Notes: generated from the sequence alone by a model not told the origin. Shown: positions 2,918-8,173, counted from the first letter of the stretch. The stretch: 64,000 nt of DNA from Lacunisphaera sp. (GCA_036401015.1 DASWWD010000003.1:37912-101911); one strand, 5' to 3'. Translations and numbers: made by a program.

Positions 2918-2966
2918 GTCCCCAACGTGGCACCCACCCCGCCCGGCGACGAACACAAATCGGGAG

Positions 2967-3099
2967 ATTGTTCAGCGTTCATTTTTCAATGTTCAGTGTT
3001 CATCGGCCTGAACCCTTGGACCCGAGCGTGGGAGGGGTTTTATACCCCGCCGTCCATATGCTCGAACCGCTGAGCATTGGATATTGAACGATGAACAAT
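2967..3099. repeat. ATTGTTC...GAACAAT palindromic element (copy 2) enclosing a GTGG-headed hairpin
   Basis: ATTGTTCAGCGTTCATTTTTCAATGTTCAGTGTTCAT ... ATTGAACGATGAACAAT; internal GTGGGA-GGGGT-TTTAT-ACCCC at 3028-3048. Confidence 0.75.
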
Positions 3100-3108
3100 G
3101 GCCCTTCG

Positions 3109-3134
3109 GTAGGGGCCGTTGCCCTCAACGGCCC
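3109..3134 (+). repeat. REP-like GTAG-headed hairpin
   Basis: GTAG + GGGCCGTTG-CCCT-CAACGGCCC (perfect 9-bp stem). Confidence 0.65.
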
Positions 3135-3147
3135 AGGCGGTTGGGGG

Positions 3148-3255
3148 CATCCGCGCCCCCTCGGGATCAAGCTGGTGCTCAAAGAGGATGAGCAGGTCGT
3201 CGGAGCGAACCTCGCGGAGAGAAACCCTAGACGTGATGACAGGTGTCGTGTCCAC
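3148..3255 (-). pseudogene. 5' fragment of a RimJ/RimL-type GNAT acetyltransferase
   Basis: VSLREVRSDDLLILFEHQLDPEGARM resembles a GNAT N-terminus; the frame then runs into REP/palindrome sequence and stops at 3040. Confidence 0.6.
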
Positions 3256-3341: not shown

Positions 3342-4121
3342 TTATGCAAGCCACAATAGGGACATGACTACACCGTAGTTGTGAAACCTTATCGACTGTT
3401 CATACAAATCTCCTGAGCGCCTGGGCAGGTGGGGAAACCATGCGCCCCAATCAACTGGACGCATGTCGCCGCTAGAAATCCCGGTAACTGCAACGTCTGC
3501 CGCACAAGATCCCTTCTGTAGCTTCTGTGCCTTCTCTAGGTAAACATACTCCATGGTCTCTTCATTCCGTCGCCACCAATCAACTGTGCCAGCGCTCGAG
3601 AAGACGACAATGACCGGATGTCCAAATTTCGAAACATAGCGAAGCGCTGCCGCGGTCATGGAAACATTAAAGCGCTCCGCAAGGCTTTCTATTAAAGCCA
3701 AGCTGGGTTCGGCTGTTCTGTGCTGCGGCAACATCATTTTCATTGGGAGTAGTAAGGAAGAAGCGAAAGCATTGGCTTCGATTTCCTCTACACTTGAGTC
3801 ATAGTCATGCATGTTCTCCGCGGTGCACATGAACACTTGAGTCCTTCCCTTGTGCAGCACCCAATGACCAAGCTCGTGCGCCAGAGCAAAGCGGCGCCTC
3901 CCAACGTCATCCAATGCGGCATTAATTGTGATCCCACCCTTATCACCGACTCGGACAAGGTGTGCATCTGCGCCCGAAAGAGGCCTATAGGTGACTTCAA
4001 TCCCTAACGCATATGCGAGATCCTCTAAGATGATTTCAGATGGCCTGTGAATGGAATACTCATCTAAAAGGCTCTGTGCCTTGGTCTCGGCAAGGAACAG
4101 TCTCGGTTGCGCAGCGCTCAC
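3342..4121 (-). CDS. ImmA/IrrE (PprI/CapP-like) Zn metallo-endopeptidase
   Basis: RRRFALAHELGHWVLH (HExxH) plus EEIEANAFASSLLLP third-ligand motif; C-terminal extension as in IrrE-type proteins. Confidence 0.9.
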   Translation of the reverse strand: MSAAQPRLFLAETKAQSLLDEYSIHRPSEIILEDLAYALGIEVTYRPLSGADAHLVRVGDKGGITINAALDDVGRRRFALAHELGHWVLHKGRTQVFMCTAENMHDYDSSVEEIEANAFASSLLLPMKMMLPQHRTAEPSLALIESLAERFNVSMTAAALRYVSKFGHPVIVVFSSAGTVDWWRRNEETMEYVYLEKAQKLQKGSCAADVAVTGISSGDMRPVDWGAWFPHLPRRSGDLYEQSIRFHNYGVVMSLLWLA

Positions 4122-4552
4122 TTGTTATCGTTTCGCTTAGCCTGTCGTTTCAACTGCTCGTAAATCGCAATCAGATCTTCAGGAGGACTATTCTCCCAAT
4201 TCCGTCCGAACACTGCAGCTGCATCCGAAGGTTCAAGTGACTCCAGAAATTTTTTAATCTCTGCAACAATGGTTTGCGCCGAGCGCGCGGTAAATGCCTT
4301 TTGCTCAGGTTGTGCGGCCGCAAGTCTTTCTTTTCGCACAAACTCCAGAGGTTTTTCTGCTGGTTTGGGATAAAGATGTGACTGAAACGCCTTCCATGTC
4401 GCCTCAGGATCAATACCTGCCTCAACCAATGCTTGAGCCACCTCGGCTGATGAAAGCTTTTCTGTTCCGTCCTGCGTTCCATAAGCGAGATCGAATACCG
4501 ATTTCGCGAAATTACTGGGATTAGTAACCGGACGTTGATGCGGATTATTCAT
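4118..4552 (-). CDS. Small soluble helical hypothetical protein (candidate anti-sigma / protease substrate)
   Basis: 144 aa, no TM segment; ATGA-type 4-bp overlaps with both neighbours. Confidence 0.75.
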   Translation of the reverse strand: MNNPHQRPVTNPSNFAKSVFDLAYGTQDGTEKLSSAEVAQALVEAGIDPEATWKAFQSHLYPKPAEKPLEFVRKERLAAAQPEQKAFTARSAQTIVAEIKKFLESLEPSDAAAVFGRNWENSPPEDLIAIYEQLKRQAKRNDNK

Positions 4553-5193
4553 TGCTGTGCCCTCTCAAATTTTCGCAGAGCCGTAGCCAAGCGACGACGA
4601 GTGTTATAGACCTCTCCTTCAGAAATGCCGATCCGTTTTGCGATCGTTTTTGCGGGACGATCGATGCCTTCGTCACGAATCAGCATGAGCATGGCGACCA
4701 GATTTTTGTCCTTTTTACAGAATTCAATAAAGCGAGTCGCCCGCGCACTAGATTGTGCCAGCTGCTCGGGAGTGAATTTTTCAGTGCGCGGATCCCAATA
4801 GGGAGTTGATGTATCGAGCAGGTCTACTTCGCGACCAAACTTGTCTTCACTGACGTGATCGGAGCGATGAGTATTTTCATAACCAGTCGCAAGATGGTTT
4901 GCTAGGCTGCGCGCAATGCATCGAAAAGCGACGTCTACGGAAACGTCAGCGGCGAAAGTGCGGACACCAGACATGACCGACATATAAATACGGCCAAAAA
5001 GATCCACGGCCGCCTGCCCTCCAGGTGCGCAGCGATCAGCAGTAGAGACACACCAGTGCTTGGTGTGAATCATTCGTTCAATTTCCAGCAGCAGGTCAAA
5101 ATATCTCTGTTTGCCTTCAGGAGCCTTGAAAAAGGCTTCGACACGTTGGGGGCACGTTAAATGGATTTCTTCCATAGGTTGGCCCGAATGCAT
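4549..5193 (-). CDS. Divergent ECF-sigma-like protein with C-terminal HTH
   Basis: C-terminal AKTIAKRIGISEGEVYNTRRRLATALRK is a sigma region-4-like HTH; weak region-2-like segment FRCIARSLANH; start could be 5175. Confidence 0.7.
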   Translation of the reverse strand: MHSGQPMEEIHLTCPQRVEAFFKAPEGKQRYFDLLLEIERMIHTKHWCVSTADRCAPGGQAAVDLFGRIYMSVMSGVRTFAADVSVDVAFRCIARSLANHLATGYENTHRSDHVSEDKFGREVDLLDTSTPYWDPRTEKFTPEQLAQSSARATRFIEFCKKDKNLVAMLMLIRDEGIDRPAKTIAKRIGISEGEVYNTRRRLATALRKFERAQQ

Positions 5194-5264
5194 AAGATGG
5201 CATCGGGGAATGCGTTGGCAATGGGATTCTGGAGCACATGAGGGATGTGAGGCATATTCAGTAA

Positions 5265-5345
5265 TACCGGCGAAATACGCGAATTTACCGTCTTAGCTGA
5301 AATTTTCCGCGAATTCTGCAAAAACAGGAAGTTCGCCGGTAGAAT
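5265..5345. promoter_or_regulatory. Divergent control region: 10-bp inverted repeat, direct repeat, and possible sigma70-like promoter for the Ubl operon
   Basis: TACCGGCGAA (5265-5274) / TTCGCCGGTA (5332-5341); CGCGAATT at 5278 and 5308; CTGCAA-N18-TAGAAT (5316-5345). Confidence 0.45.
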
Positions 5346-5414
5346 ACATCAGGCCGAAGCCGGATTCACTGGCTTCAAGCGAAGTCGAATCACCAACAAC
5401 CAAACTACAAATCC

Positions 5415-5699
5415 ATGAGTAATCCCAATCCCCAGGAACCCCCTGGTCATAACAAGCCTGTCACCATCACCGTCAACGGCCGGTCGGTAACAGTCACCAA
5501 AGACCGTTACACCTACGAGGAGATCGTCGCCATCGCGTTTCCTTCGCCGGACTTCGGGAACAACACCTACAAGGTGACCTATTTTAAGGAGGCCGACAAG
5601 AAGGGCGAGCCGCCGCATGAGCGCACCCTGACGCCGGGTGAATCCGTAAACGTCAAGGACGGCATGGTTTTTACCGTTGTCCGTTCCATCAAGTCCTAA
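5415..5699 (+). CDS. Multiubiquitin-domain (beta-grasp) ubiquitin-like protein
   Basis: VTITVNGRSVTV...YTYEEIVAIAF...YKVTY...LTPGESVNVKDGMVFTVVRSIKS matches the Multi_ubiq pattern; ends in Ser, no Gly. Confidence 0.85.
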   Translation: MSNPNPQEPPGHNKPVTITVNGRSVTVTKDRYTYEEIVAIAFPSPDFGNNTYKVTYFKEADKKGEPPHERTLTPGESVNVKDGMVFTVVRSIKS

Positions 5700-5701
5700 A
5701 C

Positions 5702-6886
5702 TTGGCTACCTCCGCCGAAATTATCACGGCCAGCCCTGATCTCAAGGCCCTCTTCGATGATGGCTTTGAGGTCGGGGTAAAGGCTTCATATCTGCTGGTG
5801 AGAAATGTCCCTTACCTGGACGACCGGCGGGCCGTCTGTCGTGGCACCCTGATTATGGTATTGCCCATGGCCACCGACATCATCGTTGGCAAACCACCGG
5901 ACCATGTGACCTTCTTTGCCGGTAAGATGCCGCACTTCTCGAATGGCGACCCTATTAATGCCATTCTTCATGAGAAAAACAGCTTTAATCTTGCCGACGG
6001 CGTCGCAGCTTCCTTCCGCTTTTCAAGTCGGCCGGAGCCCGCTGATCCTGACTTCAATGCGAAAGTCCGTCGCTATGTGGATCTCCTTTCCGGCCCCGCT
6101 CGGGTGATTGACCCTCACGCCACTGCTCAGACCCGCCAAATCCTAGAGGTAACAGATGAAGACTCACCTTTCGTTTACGCCGACTCCCACTCTGCCAGAG
6201 CGCAGATTGTGCCCATTACAGCCAAACTCAAGGGCGGCATCATCGGCATCGTGGGATTGGGTGGCACTGGTTCTTATGTCTTGGACGCTGTCGCCAAGTG
6301 CCCCGTGCAAGAGATTCACGTATTCGACGACGATGAATTTTCCCTGAATAACGCCTATCGATCCCCGGGGGCCCCAACCCTTACCGAGCTGCGCGCTCGG
6401 ATGACAAAGGTCGCCTACCATACGGCGATTTACCTTCGCATGCATCGTCGCGTTCATCCTCATGAGACGCGTATCACCGCGGCCAATGTAGAGGAGCTCG
6501 CCAAGTTGAGCTTTGCATTCCTTTGCATGGATCCCGGGCCGGATAAAGCGGCCGTCGTCGCTTTTTTGGTCGATAGGAAAATTCCTTTCATCGACACGGG
6601 CCTGGGCGTAGAGGCCGGGAATGATCAGCTGCACGGCATCGTCAACACCATCACGGTAACCCCGGCACACCACACGCACATCGGCAACGTGCCGGTGAAA
6701 TCCGGCGGCGCCGACGAGCTCTATGCCAGCAACATCCAGATCGCCGAGCTCAACATGCTCAACGCGGTCATGGCCGTAATACGGTGGAAGAAGCACATGG
6801 GCTTCTATGCCAATGATCGCCATGAGCATGAGAGCAGCTACAGCATCGGCCCCAACATGCTCACCAATGAAGAAATTCACCGTTGA
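5702..6886 (+). CDS. E2-like (DUF6791-type) - ThiF/E1 adenylyltransferase fusion
   Basis: TTG start 2 bp after the Ubl stop; N-terminal LLVRNVPYL...DHVTFFAG...FSSRP; IVGLGGTGS nucleotide-binding loop, FDDDEF..NAYRSPG, FIDTGLG, NIQIAELN. Confidence 0.9.
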   Translation: MATSAEIITASPDLKALFDDGFEVGVKASYLLVRNVPYLDDRRAVCRGTLIMVLPMATDIIVGKPPDHVTFFAGKMPHFSNGDPINAILHEKNSFNLADGVAASFRFSSRPEPADPDFNAKVRRYVDLLSGPARVIDPHATAQTRQILEVTDEDSPFVYADSHSARAQIVPITAKLKGGIIGIVGLGGTGSYVLDAVAKCPVQEIHVFDDDEFSLNNAYRSPGAPTLTELRARMTKVAYHTAIYLRMHRRVHPHETRITAANVEELAKLSFAFLCMDPGPDKAAVVAFLVDRKIPFIDTGLGVEAGNDQLHGIVNTITVTPAHHTHIGNVPVKSGGADELYASNIQIAELNMLNAVMAVIRWKKHMGFYANDRHEHESSYSIGPNMLTNEEIHR

Positions 6887-7253
6887 ATTCGTTGAGCACA
6901 TGCCGCAGCCGCTTGAGACAGGCGTGCTGTATGTTTCGATCCGCTTTCGTCTGGTAGCCCACAACTGCCCGTGTGGTTGCGGCAATGAAGTGGTGACGAA
7001 TCTCTCGCCCACCGGATGGCGGCTGACTTTTAACGGCCACACAATTTCTCTGCACCCTTCGATCGGCAACTGGGATTTCCCCTGCCGCTCTCACTACTGG
7101 ATTCGGCAAAATACTGTGCAATGGGCCGAATCATGGACCGACCGGAAAATCGCACAGGCAAAGCGCGAGCAGGACCACGCCAATTCGGACCTCGGTCTTA
7201 AGGAGCCAGTCCGCCGTCGCCCATTTTGGCAGCGTTTGTTGGGTAGCGAATAA
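6867..7253 (+). CDS. DUF6527-family protein (putative Ubl-processing protease)
   Basis: ATG at 6867 overlapping the E1 3' end; GVLYVS, HNCPCGCG, ISLHPSIGNW, PCRSHYWI motifs. Confidence 0.85.
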   Translation: MKKFTVEFVEHMPQPLETGVLYVSIRFRLVAHNCPCGCGNEVVTNLSPTGWRLTFNGHTISLHPSIGNWDFPCRSHYWIRQNTVQWAESWTDRKIAQAKREQDHANSDLGLKEPVRRRPFWQRLLGSE

Positions 7254-7264
7254 CCTCGCCTCTC

Positions 7265-7777
7265 GTGATACCCAATCCCACAGAGGTCGAAGAAACCGAA
7301 GTCACAGGCCAATTAATCGATCGGATTGGTCAGGGATACCGCTATGTGCTGACTATGGACCGCCGCGCGCGCTACTGGCACGTATTCGCCGGCTCTGCAC
7401 GGATTGCTGAGGCGCTGTGCACCCTGCTTGATGACGATGTCTTTAATATCGGCGACCTACATGTCCGTCACAACATCGCTGTCCCACAGACCTTCCTCCA
7501 GAGCTTTTTTTGCCAACCCGTCCGGCAAATCGATTATCGGCGCCGCGGACTAGGTGCTGCGTTGCTCGATCAGGTCCTAGTTCACGCACGGGAGTGTGGC
7601 TGCCGCAAGGTGACAGGCATAATCTCCATCTTCGACCTAGAAGAATTTTCGGAACTCATCGCCTGGTATGAACGCTTTGGATTCCAATATATTCCTGAAA
7701 CGCCAGGCACTCGGGTCGCTGGTAATCTCACATTAGATATAAACTCGTTGCCAGACGTTTCCAAAATCGTCGCATGA
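7265..7777 (+). CDS. GNAT-family acetyltransferase
   Basis: GTG start 11 bp after DUF6527; acetyl-CoA motif A YRRRGLGAALL; WYERFGF. Confidence 0.75.
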   Translation: MIPNPTEVEETEVTGQLIDRIGQGYRYVLTMDRRARYWHVFAGSARIAEALCTLLDDDVFNIGDLHVRHNIAVPQTFLQSFFCQPVRQIDYRRRGLGAALLDQVLVHARECGCRKVTGIISIFDLEEFSELIAWYERFGFQYIPETPGTRVAGNLTLDINSLPDVSKIVA

Positions 7778-7941
7778 AGACATATCACTGCTATCGCTGC
7801 AGCCTACCGATTGTGATGCGCGCTTCGTATCGGCAGAAGGCAACCAAGCGCGTGGTCCATCGCATGGGTAAAAAGGCGTTCCCAATCCACGTTGGAGGCC
7901 ATTGCGGCCAGACTTATTGGCCTTCGATCCTCAAAAACTGA
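7774..7941 (+). CDS. 55-aa basic mini-protein with CxxC and HxxxHC (possible Zn-binding)
   Basis: Hand translation MKTYHCYRCSLPIVMRASYRQKATKRVVHRMGKKAFPIHVGGHCGQTYWPSILKN; ATGA overlap with GNAT stop; below the ORF-track cutoff. Confidence 0.5.
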   Translation: MKTYHCYRCSLPIVMRASYRQKATKRVVHRMGKKAFPIHVGGHCGQTYWPSILKN

Positions 7942-8090: not shown

Positions 8091-8148
8091 ATTGTTCGTT
8101 GGTTCGGATAAGTGGACGATGACCATTGAAAAATCAGTGATGAACAAT
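8091..8148. repeat. ATTGTTC...GAACAAT palindromic element (copy 3, short)
   Basis: ATTGTTCGTTGGTTC ... CATTGAAAAATCAGTGATGAACAAT. Confidence 0.7.
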
Positions 8149-8173
8149 CGCGGCGCTGACCAATGTCCGCGCC

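Follow-up and report, generated by a model that had tools for sequence, protein, structure and literature searches.

Introduction

The characterised regulators that sense DNA damage and control bacterial immune operons (CapW, CapH+CapP as well as CapK+CapS) all work by the removal of a repressor. In case of CapH+CapP, which is related to the DdrO + IrrE/PprI pair from Deinococcus, the protease CapP is switched on by single-stranded DNA (ssDNA) (Lau et al. 2022, bioRxiv 10.1101/2022.04.27.489752; preprint 10.64898/2026.05.16.725639) and CapH is cleaved at F82|R83, a site 25 residues short of the C-terminus and in front of a helix that docks on CapP (preprint 10.64898/2026.05.16.725639). Here we analyse a locus in a 64,000-nt stretch of DNA from Lacunisphaera sp. 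(GCA_036401015.1 DASWWD010000003.1:37912-101911; the whole of this stretch is referred to as the window) at which capP is found in different company: the locus is a strain-specific island of ~5 kb, comprising a Type II operon for ubiquitin-like conjugation (Bub) and, divergent to it, a translationally coupled controller of three genes that encode a sigma-like protein, a partner protein of 144 amino acids (aa) and CapP, together referred to as the triad.

The presence of a sigma factor in such surroundings has been recorded before: 24 systems for cyclic oligonucleotide-based antiphage signalling (CBASS) with a sigma-70-family gene beside capH+capP were listed as "Sigma-70 present" and not analysed further, an example from Table S1 being the Type II-short CBASS with phospholipase effector of Bradyrhizobium sp. 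WSM1417 (Lau et al. 2022, bioRxiv 10.1101/2022.04.27.489752). CapH+CapP has also been found beside 168 of 544 Bub operons, with sigma variants not separated (bioRxiv 10.1101/2024.11.21.623953), and neither the preprint on the CapP mechanism (10.64898/2026.05.16.725639) nor the CapK+CapS paper mentions sigma. A sigma-controlled CBASS-CRISPR island with a transmembrane anti-sigma factor is described for DdvS/DdvA (PMC11506125), and a full-text search of the literature for IrrE, COG2856 or CapP together with sigma or anti-sigma revealed no study of a switch of the kind proposed here. The initial annotation of this DNA had taken the combination of genes to be undescribed: this does not stand for the occurrence of sigma beside capH/capP, which was recorded by Lau et al. 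2022, but it does for the switch, which has never been characterised. What is new here is the controller, known before from one sentence and a supplementary table; the Bub operon itself was already known.

We lean, with modest confidence, towards a reading in which ssDNA-activated CapP destroys an anti-sigma partner and the freed sigma factor brings about transcription of its own operon and of Bub. The grounds for this are the identity of CapP, the sigma fold, the conserved partner without a helix-turn-helix (HTH), the translational coupling, the divergent motifs and the defence cargo, taken together with the published biochemistry of CapP.

The three proteins of the controller

The capP gene (3342..4121, minus strand) encodes a 259-aa Zn metallopeptidase of the ImmA/IrrE family (M78) with a GAF-like C-terminal domain. 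Known initially as an HExxH metalloprotease, it is in fact a true CapP, full-length with its peptidase, central and GAF-like domains and with the cysteine switch: the PADLOC capP model matches residues 12-258 at profile positions 6-241 of 242 (6.7e-60), Pfam Peptidase_M78 is matched with 2.3e-21 and the PDB entry 7T5T ('CapP') with 1.6e-22 over residues 65-258, that is, through the GAF-like domain. The metal-binding motif is H82-E83-x-x-H86, and Cys99 lies 17 residues after H82 (HELGH+17); the equivalent in Thauera CapP is the cysteine-switch residue C113, which lies 17 residues after H96.

The gene upstream of capP (4118..4552, minus strand) encodes the partner protein, a putative anti-sigma factor of 144 aa that is soluble, all-helical and free of both HTH and cysteine. 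It belongs to no family in Pfam, NCBIfam, PADLOC or PHROGs and has no sequence match in the PDB, with only noise or sub-threshold hits obtained. Its solubility, proposed at the outset, is borne out by the lack of a transmembrane segment (maximum 19-residue hydropathy of 0.44). The absence of an XRE repressor holds as well: no XRE/CapH-type HTH was detected at the locus using Pfam, PADLOC, the PDB and XRE models, with no signal in 11 of 11 family members even at E<=10 (HTH_3, HTH_31 and other XRE models), and the family profile, run against the PDB chains with a limit of E<=10, found neither CapH nor DdrO. The AlphaFold2 (AF2) model of the protein is all-helical with a mean confidence (pLDDT) of 69, and a fold search with it against the PDB returned nothing below E=1, which is a weak test given this pLDDT; low confidence for the protein by itself is in line with one that acquires its fold on a partner. 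The family is conserved and alignable across triads, including distant ones (alignment A4), and exhibits a near-invariant motif [FY]-[GA]-R117-x-W119-E120, which is situated ~27 residues before the C-terminus and has a terminal helix (124-142) after it. The combination of motif and helix appears to mirror the cleavage site of CapH, in the sense of a resemblance and not of homology.

The locus thus shares with CapH+CapP the full-length protease family with its cysteine switch, the placement of capP, which diverges from a CBASS or Bub operon and is translationally coupled to the preceding gene, and the same range of cargo; the aromatic-x-Arg motif and terminal helix of the partner, at a similar distance from the C-terminus as the CapH cleavage site, may be a further parallel. 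It differs in that the product of the gene before capP lacks both an XRE HTH and any detectable similarity to CapH, in that a third gene for a sigma-like factor is always present in the triad, and in that the spacer contains ECF-like (extracytoplasmic function) candidate promoter motifs rather than a CapH operator; the predicted logic is activation and not derepression. ImmR+ImmA of ICEBs1 and the phage-type repressor/antirepressor proteases likewise combine an M78 protease with a neighbouring regulatory substrate, a mobile element and a response to DNA damage (predicted for the window); the substrate ImmR, however, is a repressor of HTH type, and a sigma factor plays no part.

The sigma-like gene (4549..5175, minus strand) encodes 208 aa when translated from M7, or 214 aa from the alternative start at 5193; the former is the more likely, and the spacer accordingly 239 bp long, because the homologues and the database gene call all begin at M7 (MEEIHL...). 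Its sequence is matched by TIGR02937 (sigma70-ECF) over residues 51-208 with 2.5e-5, and no Pfam Sigma70 match was obtained for the window protein, with Sigma70_r2 being matched by 8 of 70 family members; searches of the PDB, PHROGs and PADLOC with its sequence likewise yielded noise or hits below threshold. In contrast to this marginal signal, the AF2 model calculated from the 70-sequence alignment has a pLDDT of 92.6 and displays two helical domains, and all of the top 50 Foldseek matches in the PDB are sigma factors, mostly of ECF type and including AlgU, SigL, SigE, SigH, SigW, SigK and BldN, with probabilities of up to 0.99; global template-modelling scores are low because the orientation of the domains differs. 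The model exceeds minimal ECF sigma factors by N-terminal helices (8-38) and a beta-hairpin insert (108-118). What had been called a sigma-like protein is therefore predicted to possess the complete sigma-2 + sigma-4 fold, and the modelling points to a divergent sigma factor, ECF-type by fold and marginal by sequence. The family is small, with just 213 representatives at E<=1e-3 in an exhaustive profile search of 1.84 billion proteins, and those relatives that were looked up are nameless or annotated only as "hypothetical protein".

A distant relative of the sigma-like protein (27% identity) is encoded on the Abditibacteriota plasmid pIAD-21 (AP024153.1; L059:8025-12686 in our locus numbering), where the next genes encode a hypothetical protein (204 aa) and a PcrA-like helicase (1145 aa) instead of the partner and CapP. 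A tblastn search of 72,556 plasmids gave no match for the window sigma-like protein, the partner or two distant relatives; the hit to the Abditibacteriota plasmid was obtained with a third relative.

Conservation and cargo of the triad

Among 401 species genomes of the phylum we identified seven strong matches to the sigma-like protein, each of which is followed by capP on the same strand (7/7), with the partner detectable in six of the seven; the exception (L052) is disrupted by an insertion sequence (IS). Metagenomic members of the triad keep the full arrangement down to ~24% sigma identity. In total, the triad is complete and the partner translationally coupled at 14 of 16 loci, the incomplete ones being L007, where the contig ends within the partner gene, and L052, where the partner is not detectable. 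Wider scans yielded one locus from genome contigs and one 1-kb contig from metagenome contigs, with the broader alignment A5 being too diverse for scanning; contigs L089-L091 match the window with 100% identity and contribute nothing new.

The initial annotation had paired the triad with ubiquitin-like operons, and the survey of the 16 neighbourhoods shows that this pairing is not specific: CBASS of Types I, II-short and III is the cargo at six loci (L001, L004, L007, L049, L053 and L061), Bub at two (Type II in the window, Type I at L050) and other ThiF/E1 operons at two (L051 and L054), whilst three have a Tn7-like transposon setting (L008, L010-12 and L064) and three have unknown or no cargo (L002, L005 and L052). 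The cargo class at L061 is that of the WSM1417 system (Type II-short CBASS with phospholipase effector). This range is that of the published Cap regulators, and the triad is better described as a general controller than as one specific for ubiquitin-like conjugation. What holds is the view of the triad as a unit: it is a conserved module divergent to defence operons, with matching ECF-like motifs in both directions.

The Tn7-like settings correspond to three independent elements carrying the triad at the right end, together with genes for TnsA, TnsB-like, TniB/TnsC and one or two TniQ proteins (L008:4018-11950; L010:3970-11875; L011; L064:1515-9878), which suggests a DNA-damage-gated switch on the transposon. 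The end of the element lies immediately upstream of mraZ-rsmH in L011 and in the L064 family's JGI copy, and a divergent gene for a 95-98-aa XRE protein lies beside the triad in L008 and L010. All three spacers start, by the divergent gene, with TGTCyGrAAwtyCAGACTTGAA, and GTCyGGAAAACCrGAC is found further in.

A second, unrelated sigma triad occurs in three genomes of the same bacterial family (L084:5014-6975; also L085, L086 and L087), divergent to four Type-I-like Bub operons with split BubA/BubB. It consists of genes for a 238-aa Sigma70_r2-positive protein, a 128-aa protein without family and a 280-aa CapP-like peptidase; the 128-aa protein was considered as a homologue of the 144-aa partner and rejected (hhalign probability of 0.4%).

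Candidate promoters in the spacer

The spacer between the two operons contains ECF-like motifs on both strands. The first of these, P1, faces the sigma gene (5262..5290, minus strand) with a -35 element CGGTAAATT (5290->5282) and a -10 element CGGTATTA (5269->5262), and is overlapped by a second sigma-ward copy (5283..5309, minus strand; CGGAAAATTT ... CGGTAAAT); a third motif faces the Bub operon (5316..5345, plus strand) with -35 CTGCAAAAAC (5316-5325) and -10 CGGTAGAAT (5337-5345). P1 precedes the M7 start of the sigma gene by 90 nt, and the Bub-ward motif the bubA ATG by 74 nt. The bipartite motif, GGnRAA(W) followed after 14-15 nt by CGGTAT(ta), recurs in five otherwise unrelated spacers (the window, L001, L004, L005 and L049), in each of them on both strands, ~65-78 nt upstream from the cargo start and 94-111 nt upstream from the sigma start. 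A sigma-ward motif was found upstream of the sigma gene in at least eight loci, with the position of P1 kept in L001, L002, L004, L005, L049, L061 and L064. At L061 the motif is again on both strands, with the cargo-ward copy farther from the cargo gene and beyond a 38-aa open reading frame (ORF), L002 and L064 have the sigma-ward copy only, and L050 and L008 exhibit a CGGCA variant. The geometry is that of ECF promoters, such as those of sigma-W (TGAAAC-N16-CGTA) and sigma-E (GGAACTT-N16-TCAAA), and we consider the spacer motifs to be candidate back-to-back ECF promoters.

Both strands of the genome (3.87 Mb in 26 contigs, with each triad gene present as a single copy; ~7.7 million positions) were scanned with a position matrix derived from nine sites at five other loci, to which the window did not contribute. 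P1 was the best match genome-wide (rank 1, 28.9 bits) and the second sigma-ward copy (5309-5283) ranked third (23.8 bits), with the Bub-ward motif at rank 20 and also matched by the pattern search. The second-best match (C16:148060) was dismissed as a regulon site, being antisense inside a 736-aa gene, and a loose version of the motif was not enriched genome-wide (11 matches vs 17 for the control). For these two reasons the regulon appears to be private to the window spacer, and the module appears orthogonal, as no other convincing sites were found in the genome.

A further observation concerns the cargo-less triad at L002, which has a 684-bp region upstream: here, ~eight tandem copies of a ~28-30-bp unit (…ACGGAGAGAAATGyCCGsssCG…) precede the sigma-ward motif (L002:7950-8200).

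Proposed mechanism and alternative explanations

A conserved divergent module with motifs facing both ways is what an ON switch that runs from protease to anti-sigma to sigma would predict. At rest, the helical 144-aa protein would hold a private ECF-type sigma factor inactive. DNA damage or phage replication would then generate ssDNA, which would open the cysteine switch of CapP as it does in CapP homologues in the literature, and CapP would cut the 144-aa protein, probably near [FY]-[GA]-R117 and before the C-terminal helix if the analogy to F82|R83 of CapH is followed. The freed sigma factor would finally take RNA polymerase to both spacer promoters, such that its own operon and the Bub operon are induced. 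Within this scheme, we infer the binding of sigma by the partner, the cleavage of the partner by CapP and the activity of the sigma factor, with the use of the promoters being predicted. Whether the 144-aa family can in addition be viewed as a new class of cytoplasmic anti-sigma factor, whose sole role is to be destroyed by an ssDNA-activated protease of the IrrE/CapP type, is a proposal that we regard as evenly balanced; sigma factor, partner and CapP would then make up a Cap controller of a fourth kind, the first that acts by activation. It would be portable, gated by DNA damage and equipped with a private promoter code, and mobile elements would hook it up to CBASS, Bub, further E1 systems and even Tn7-like transposons.

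The comparison with ECF sigma/anti-sigma pairs under regulated proteolysis (RseA-sigmaE, RsiW-sigmaW and DdvA-DdvS) is instructive in this regard. A two-domain sigma factor with a co-transcribed partner is common to all, as is an autoregulated promoter with a GGAA-like -35 element and a CG(G)T-like -10 element ~16 nt apart (predicted in the window), and the release of sigma through proteolysis of the partner is proposed here also. However, the window partner is cytoplasmic and has neither a transmembrane segment nor a zinc motif nor any anti-sigma domain that could be recognised; its operon also encodes the protease, an M78/IrrE enzyme that is soluble and predicted to sense ssDNA, whilst the known systems make use of membrane site-1/site-2 proteases or ClpXP.

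Several observations weigh against the proposed switch. The sequence signal of the sigma-like protein is below the family cutoff (TIGR02937: 24 bits vs 42.9), and the partner shows no similarity to known anti-sigma domains (ASD/ZAS) and no zinc HxxxCxxC motif, with the fold search returning noise. The Bub-ward motif scores only 19.5 bits, and the boxes within the spacer are alike (CGGnAAAT vs CGGTAtta) and recur every ~20-21 bp, so that they could form an array of operator repeats. Finally, the triad at L002 has no divergent cargo and that at L064 stands at a Tn7-like end with the sigma-ward motif only, which indicates that the triad need not always control a neighbour.

An operator array would be in keeping with classical derepression, which is how all characterised Cap regulators (CapH+CapP, CapW and CapK+CapS) act: the sigma-like protein, with or without the 144-aa protein, would repress both operons through its region-4 HTH bound to the CGGnAAAT boxes, which form a direct-repeat array with three copies on the minus strand ~20 bp apart plus two on the plus strand, and CapP would remove the repressor. 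We hold this to be unlikely, given that the sigma-2 + sigma-4 architecture is complete, that only sigma factors are found among the top fold matches and that the geometry of the motifs and their fixed distance to the start codons fit promoters; derepression would furthermore need a housekeeping promoter in the spacer, and a consensus scan for sigma-70-type promoters found none there, though the consensus for this phylum is not established. A similarly low probability is assigned to a scheme in which CapP trims an inhibitory segment from the sigma-like protein itself, or in which the 144-aa protein is a mere adaptor or co-sensor rather than an anti-sigma factor. Activation of pro-sigma factors by proteolysis is well established (pro-sigma-E and pro-sigma-K of Bacillus), the sigma-like protein has the helices 8-38 and the beta-hairpin 108-118 beyond what minimal ECF sigma factors possess, and L052 combines sigma and CapP without a detectable partner; against this, L052 is the IS-disrupted locus, and the partner is otherwise conserved and coupled as described above and carries the CapH-like C-terminal aromatic-x-Arg motif with its helix.

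The triad could also be a self-contained mobile or toxin-antitoxin-like module in the style of ImmA/ImmR, which merely comes to lie beside defence genes and does not regulate Bub. Its presence in three Tn7-like elements, beside unknown genes and without a divergent partner agrees with such a view, as does a match to NCBIfam spr1629, with pairs of M78 peptidase and partner sometimes being annotated as toxin-antitoxin systems. We nevertheless judge this to be very improbable in light of the cargo-ward motif copies in the window, L001, L004, L005, L049 and L061 (and as a variant in L050) and the divergent placement of the triad, which is the same as that of the proven CapH+CapP regulators.

Should CapP indeed free a private sigma factor, the logic would be different from that of the characterised immune regulators, namely positive, self-amplifying and insulated from host promoters. 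Such a switch would join proteases of the IrrE/ImmA type with ECF sigma/anti-sigma signalling by way of a soluble protease and a new anti-sigma fold. The module is compact (~1.85 kb plus a bidirectional promoter region of ~240 bp) and potentially useful as a DNA-damage-inducible expression switch, and the controller gives a way of approaching the biological signal that sets off Bub operons.

The Type II Bub operon

The operon on the plus strand begins with bubA (5415..5699), which encodes a 94-aa ubiquitin-like protein with a single beta-grasp domain and the C-terminus ...VRSIKS (Pfam Multi_ubiq, PF14452, 1.1e-16, residues 16-90). It is followed by bubBD (5702..6886; 394 aa), a fusion of an E2-like domain (DUF6791, 2.2e-43) and an E1 domain (ThiF, 1.3e-12) that is also matched by NCBIfam NF004805 (440 bits, cutoff 352), and by bubE (6867..7253; 128 aa), which encodes a DUF6527 protein (PF20137, 2.6e-26) and, taking the function from Ye et al., a serine protease/deconjugase. 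Type II Bub (6E.2) is defined by BubA, the BubBD E2-E1 fusion and BubE without JAB, with E1 and E2 acting via Tyr and Ser oxyesters and BubE being a serine protease (Ye, Gong, Chambers & Corbett, bioRxiv 10.1101/2024.11.21.623953). As the gene set and order that define this type are present and no JAB/JAMM peptidase domain was found in any of the eight island proteins in the Pfam search, the operon is by its gene content a canonical, already described Type II Bub. The initial annotation had mentioned a link of operons for ubiquitin-like proteins, E1, E2 and DUF6527 to anti-phage defence; protection against phage by Bub has not been shown in the literature.

The motif F-S108-[SN]-[KR]-P (F-S108-S-R-P in the window) and Y341 (LYxxNIQ; the counterpart of Y342 in E. 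coli) are conserved across the four BubBD proteins that were aligned, and S108 of the E2 and Y341 of the E1 crossover loop are the predicted catalytic residues on the basis of their position alone. BubE contains the expected Cys4 and Ser/His residues (C34-x-C36-x-C38, S65, C73 and H76). Each of the four Type II BubA proteins that we looked at terminates in [KQ]-Ser and not in Gly: SIKS in the window (5688-5699) and TNKS, TDKS and TGQS in three others from the same phylum (L080:7306-8013, L082:10663-11418 and L083:7654-8019), such that the C-terminal Ser of the window protein is no anomaly; in L084, BubA from the split Type-I-like operon has Gly as its last residue. In Type II Bub, the residue adenylated at the C-terminus may differ from that of canonical ubiquitin-like proteins. 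The canonical gene order with overlaps, the E2 Ser, the crossover-loop Tyr and the Cys4/Ser/His residues of BubE are all shared with described Type II operons; the window differs through the addition of two genes downstream and through its regulator, which is the sigma triad and not CapH+CapP, CapW or CapK+CapS. Other Type II operons of the phylum have different neighbours: the one in L082 has, immediately upstream and in the same orientation, a gene for a 977-aa UvrD-helicase/PD-(D/E)XK protein (L082:11502-14435), and the one in L080 a divergent gene for a 374-aa fusion of HTH_3 and Peptidase_M78 (L080:5826-6950), a fused CapH-CapP type.

The first of the two added genes (7265..7777, plus strand; 170 aa) encodes an orphan GNAT acetyltransferase, with matches little above the cutoffs for Acetyltransf_7 (30.6 vs 27 bits) and Acetyltransf_1 (28.1 vs 20.7 bits) that are confined to residues 90-141. 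The 11-bp gap and shared composition suggest that it is co-transcribed with the Bub operon. The role of effector initially envisaged for it has no comparative support, and GNAT was rejected as a conserved Bub component: a search of 5.8 billion protein clusters returned only the protein itself and there was no match in nine other Bub operons of the phylum, one of which has a CoiA-like nuclease downstream instead.

The second added gene (7774..7941, plus strand) encodes a basic Cys/His protein of 55 aa, for which the zinc-ribbon region of Mut7-C is a weak hit (E 0.05). A homologue with 91% identity is encoded on an unrelated metagenomic contig of 1.4 kb (L092:307-474), amid a run of genes for proteins of 55-74 aa, one of them DUF1737. 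The similarity at DNA level ends at the borders of the ORF, with unrelated flanks and differences that are mostly synonymous, which argues that the ORF is a real gene; judged by this comparison it is a portable small gene and no component of Bub. His43 is not a conserved metal ligand, being replaced by Arg in the homologue.

Genomic setting of the island

The ORF map reproduced the eight genes of the initial annotation exactly in coordinates and strand, together with the 4-bp overlaps between all three minus-strand genes, the plus-strand junctions (2-bp gap, 20-bp overlap, 11-bp gap and 4-bp overlap) and the 221-bp spacer that follows from the sigma-like start at 5193. The domain calls (Peptidase_M78/capP, Multi_ubiq, DUF6791+ThiF, DUF6527 and GNAT) were equally confirmed, as was the lower GC content of the island, at 48-56% for the eight genes vs 64-68% for the flanking rhomboid, 179-aa and mqo genes.

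The same flanking genes are kept in genomes of the genus without the island between the rhomboid and 179-aa genes, and this interval is a variable hotspot: it spans 1.1 kb with DUF2200 and DUF1801 genes in G013, 4.2 kb in G001 and 10 kb in G009, where it includes a gene for an OLD-family AAA_15-TOPRIM nuclease (L025:6797-8572). A search for tRNA genes or an integrase at the borders of the island found none. The left border is marked by a heptamer-based palindromic element (2966..3102; TGTTCAn repeats / GATGAACAAT; repeat I1/D2), which is matched by a palindromic element at the right border (8113..8151, pairing with 2966-3102); 9-10-mers of these elements occur in 9-16 copies in the genome. An ORF of 71 aa on the minus strand (3040-3255), situated at the left border between this palindromic element and the capP gene, may be a gene fragment.

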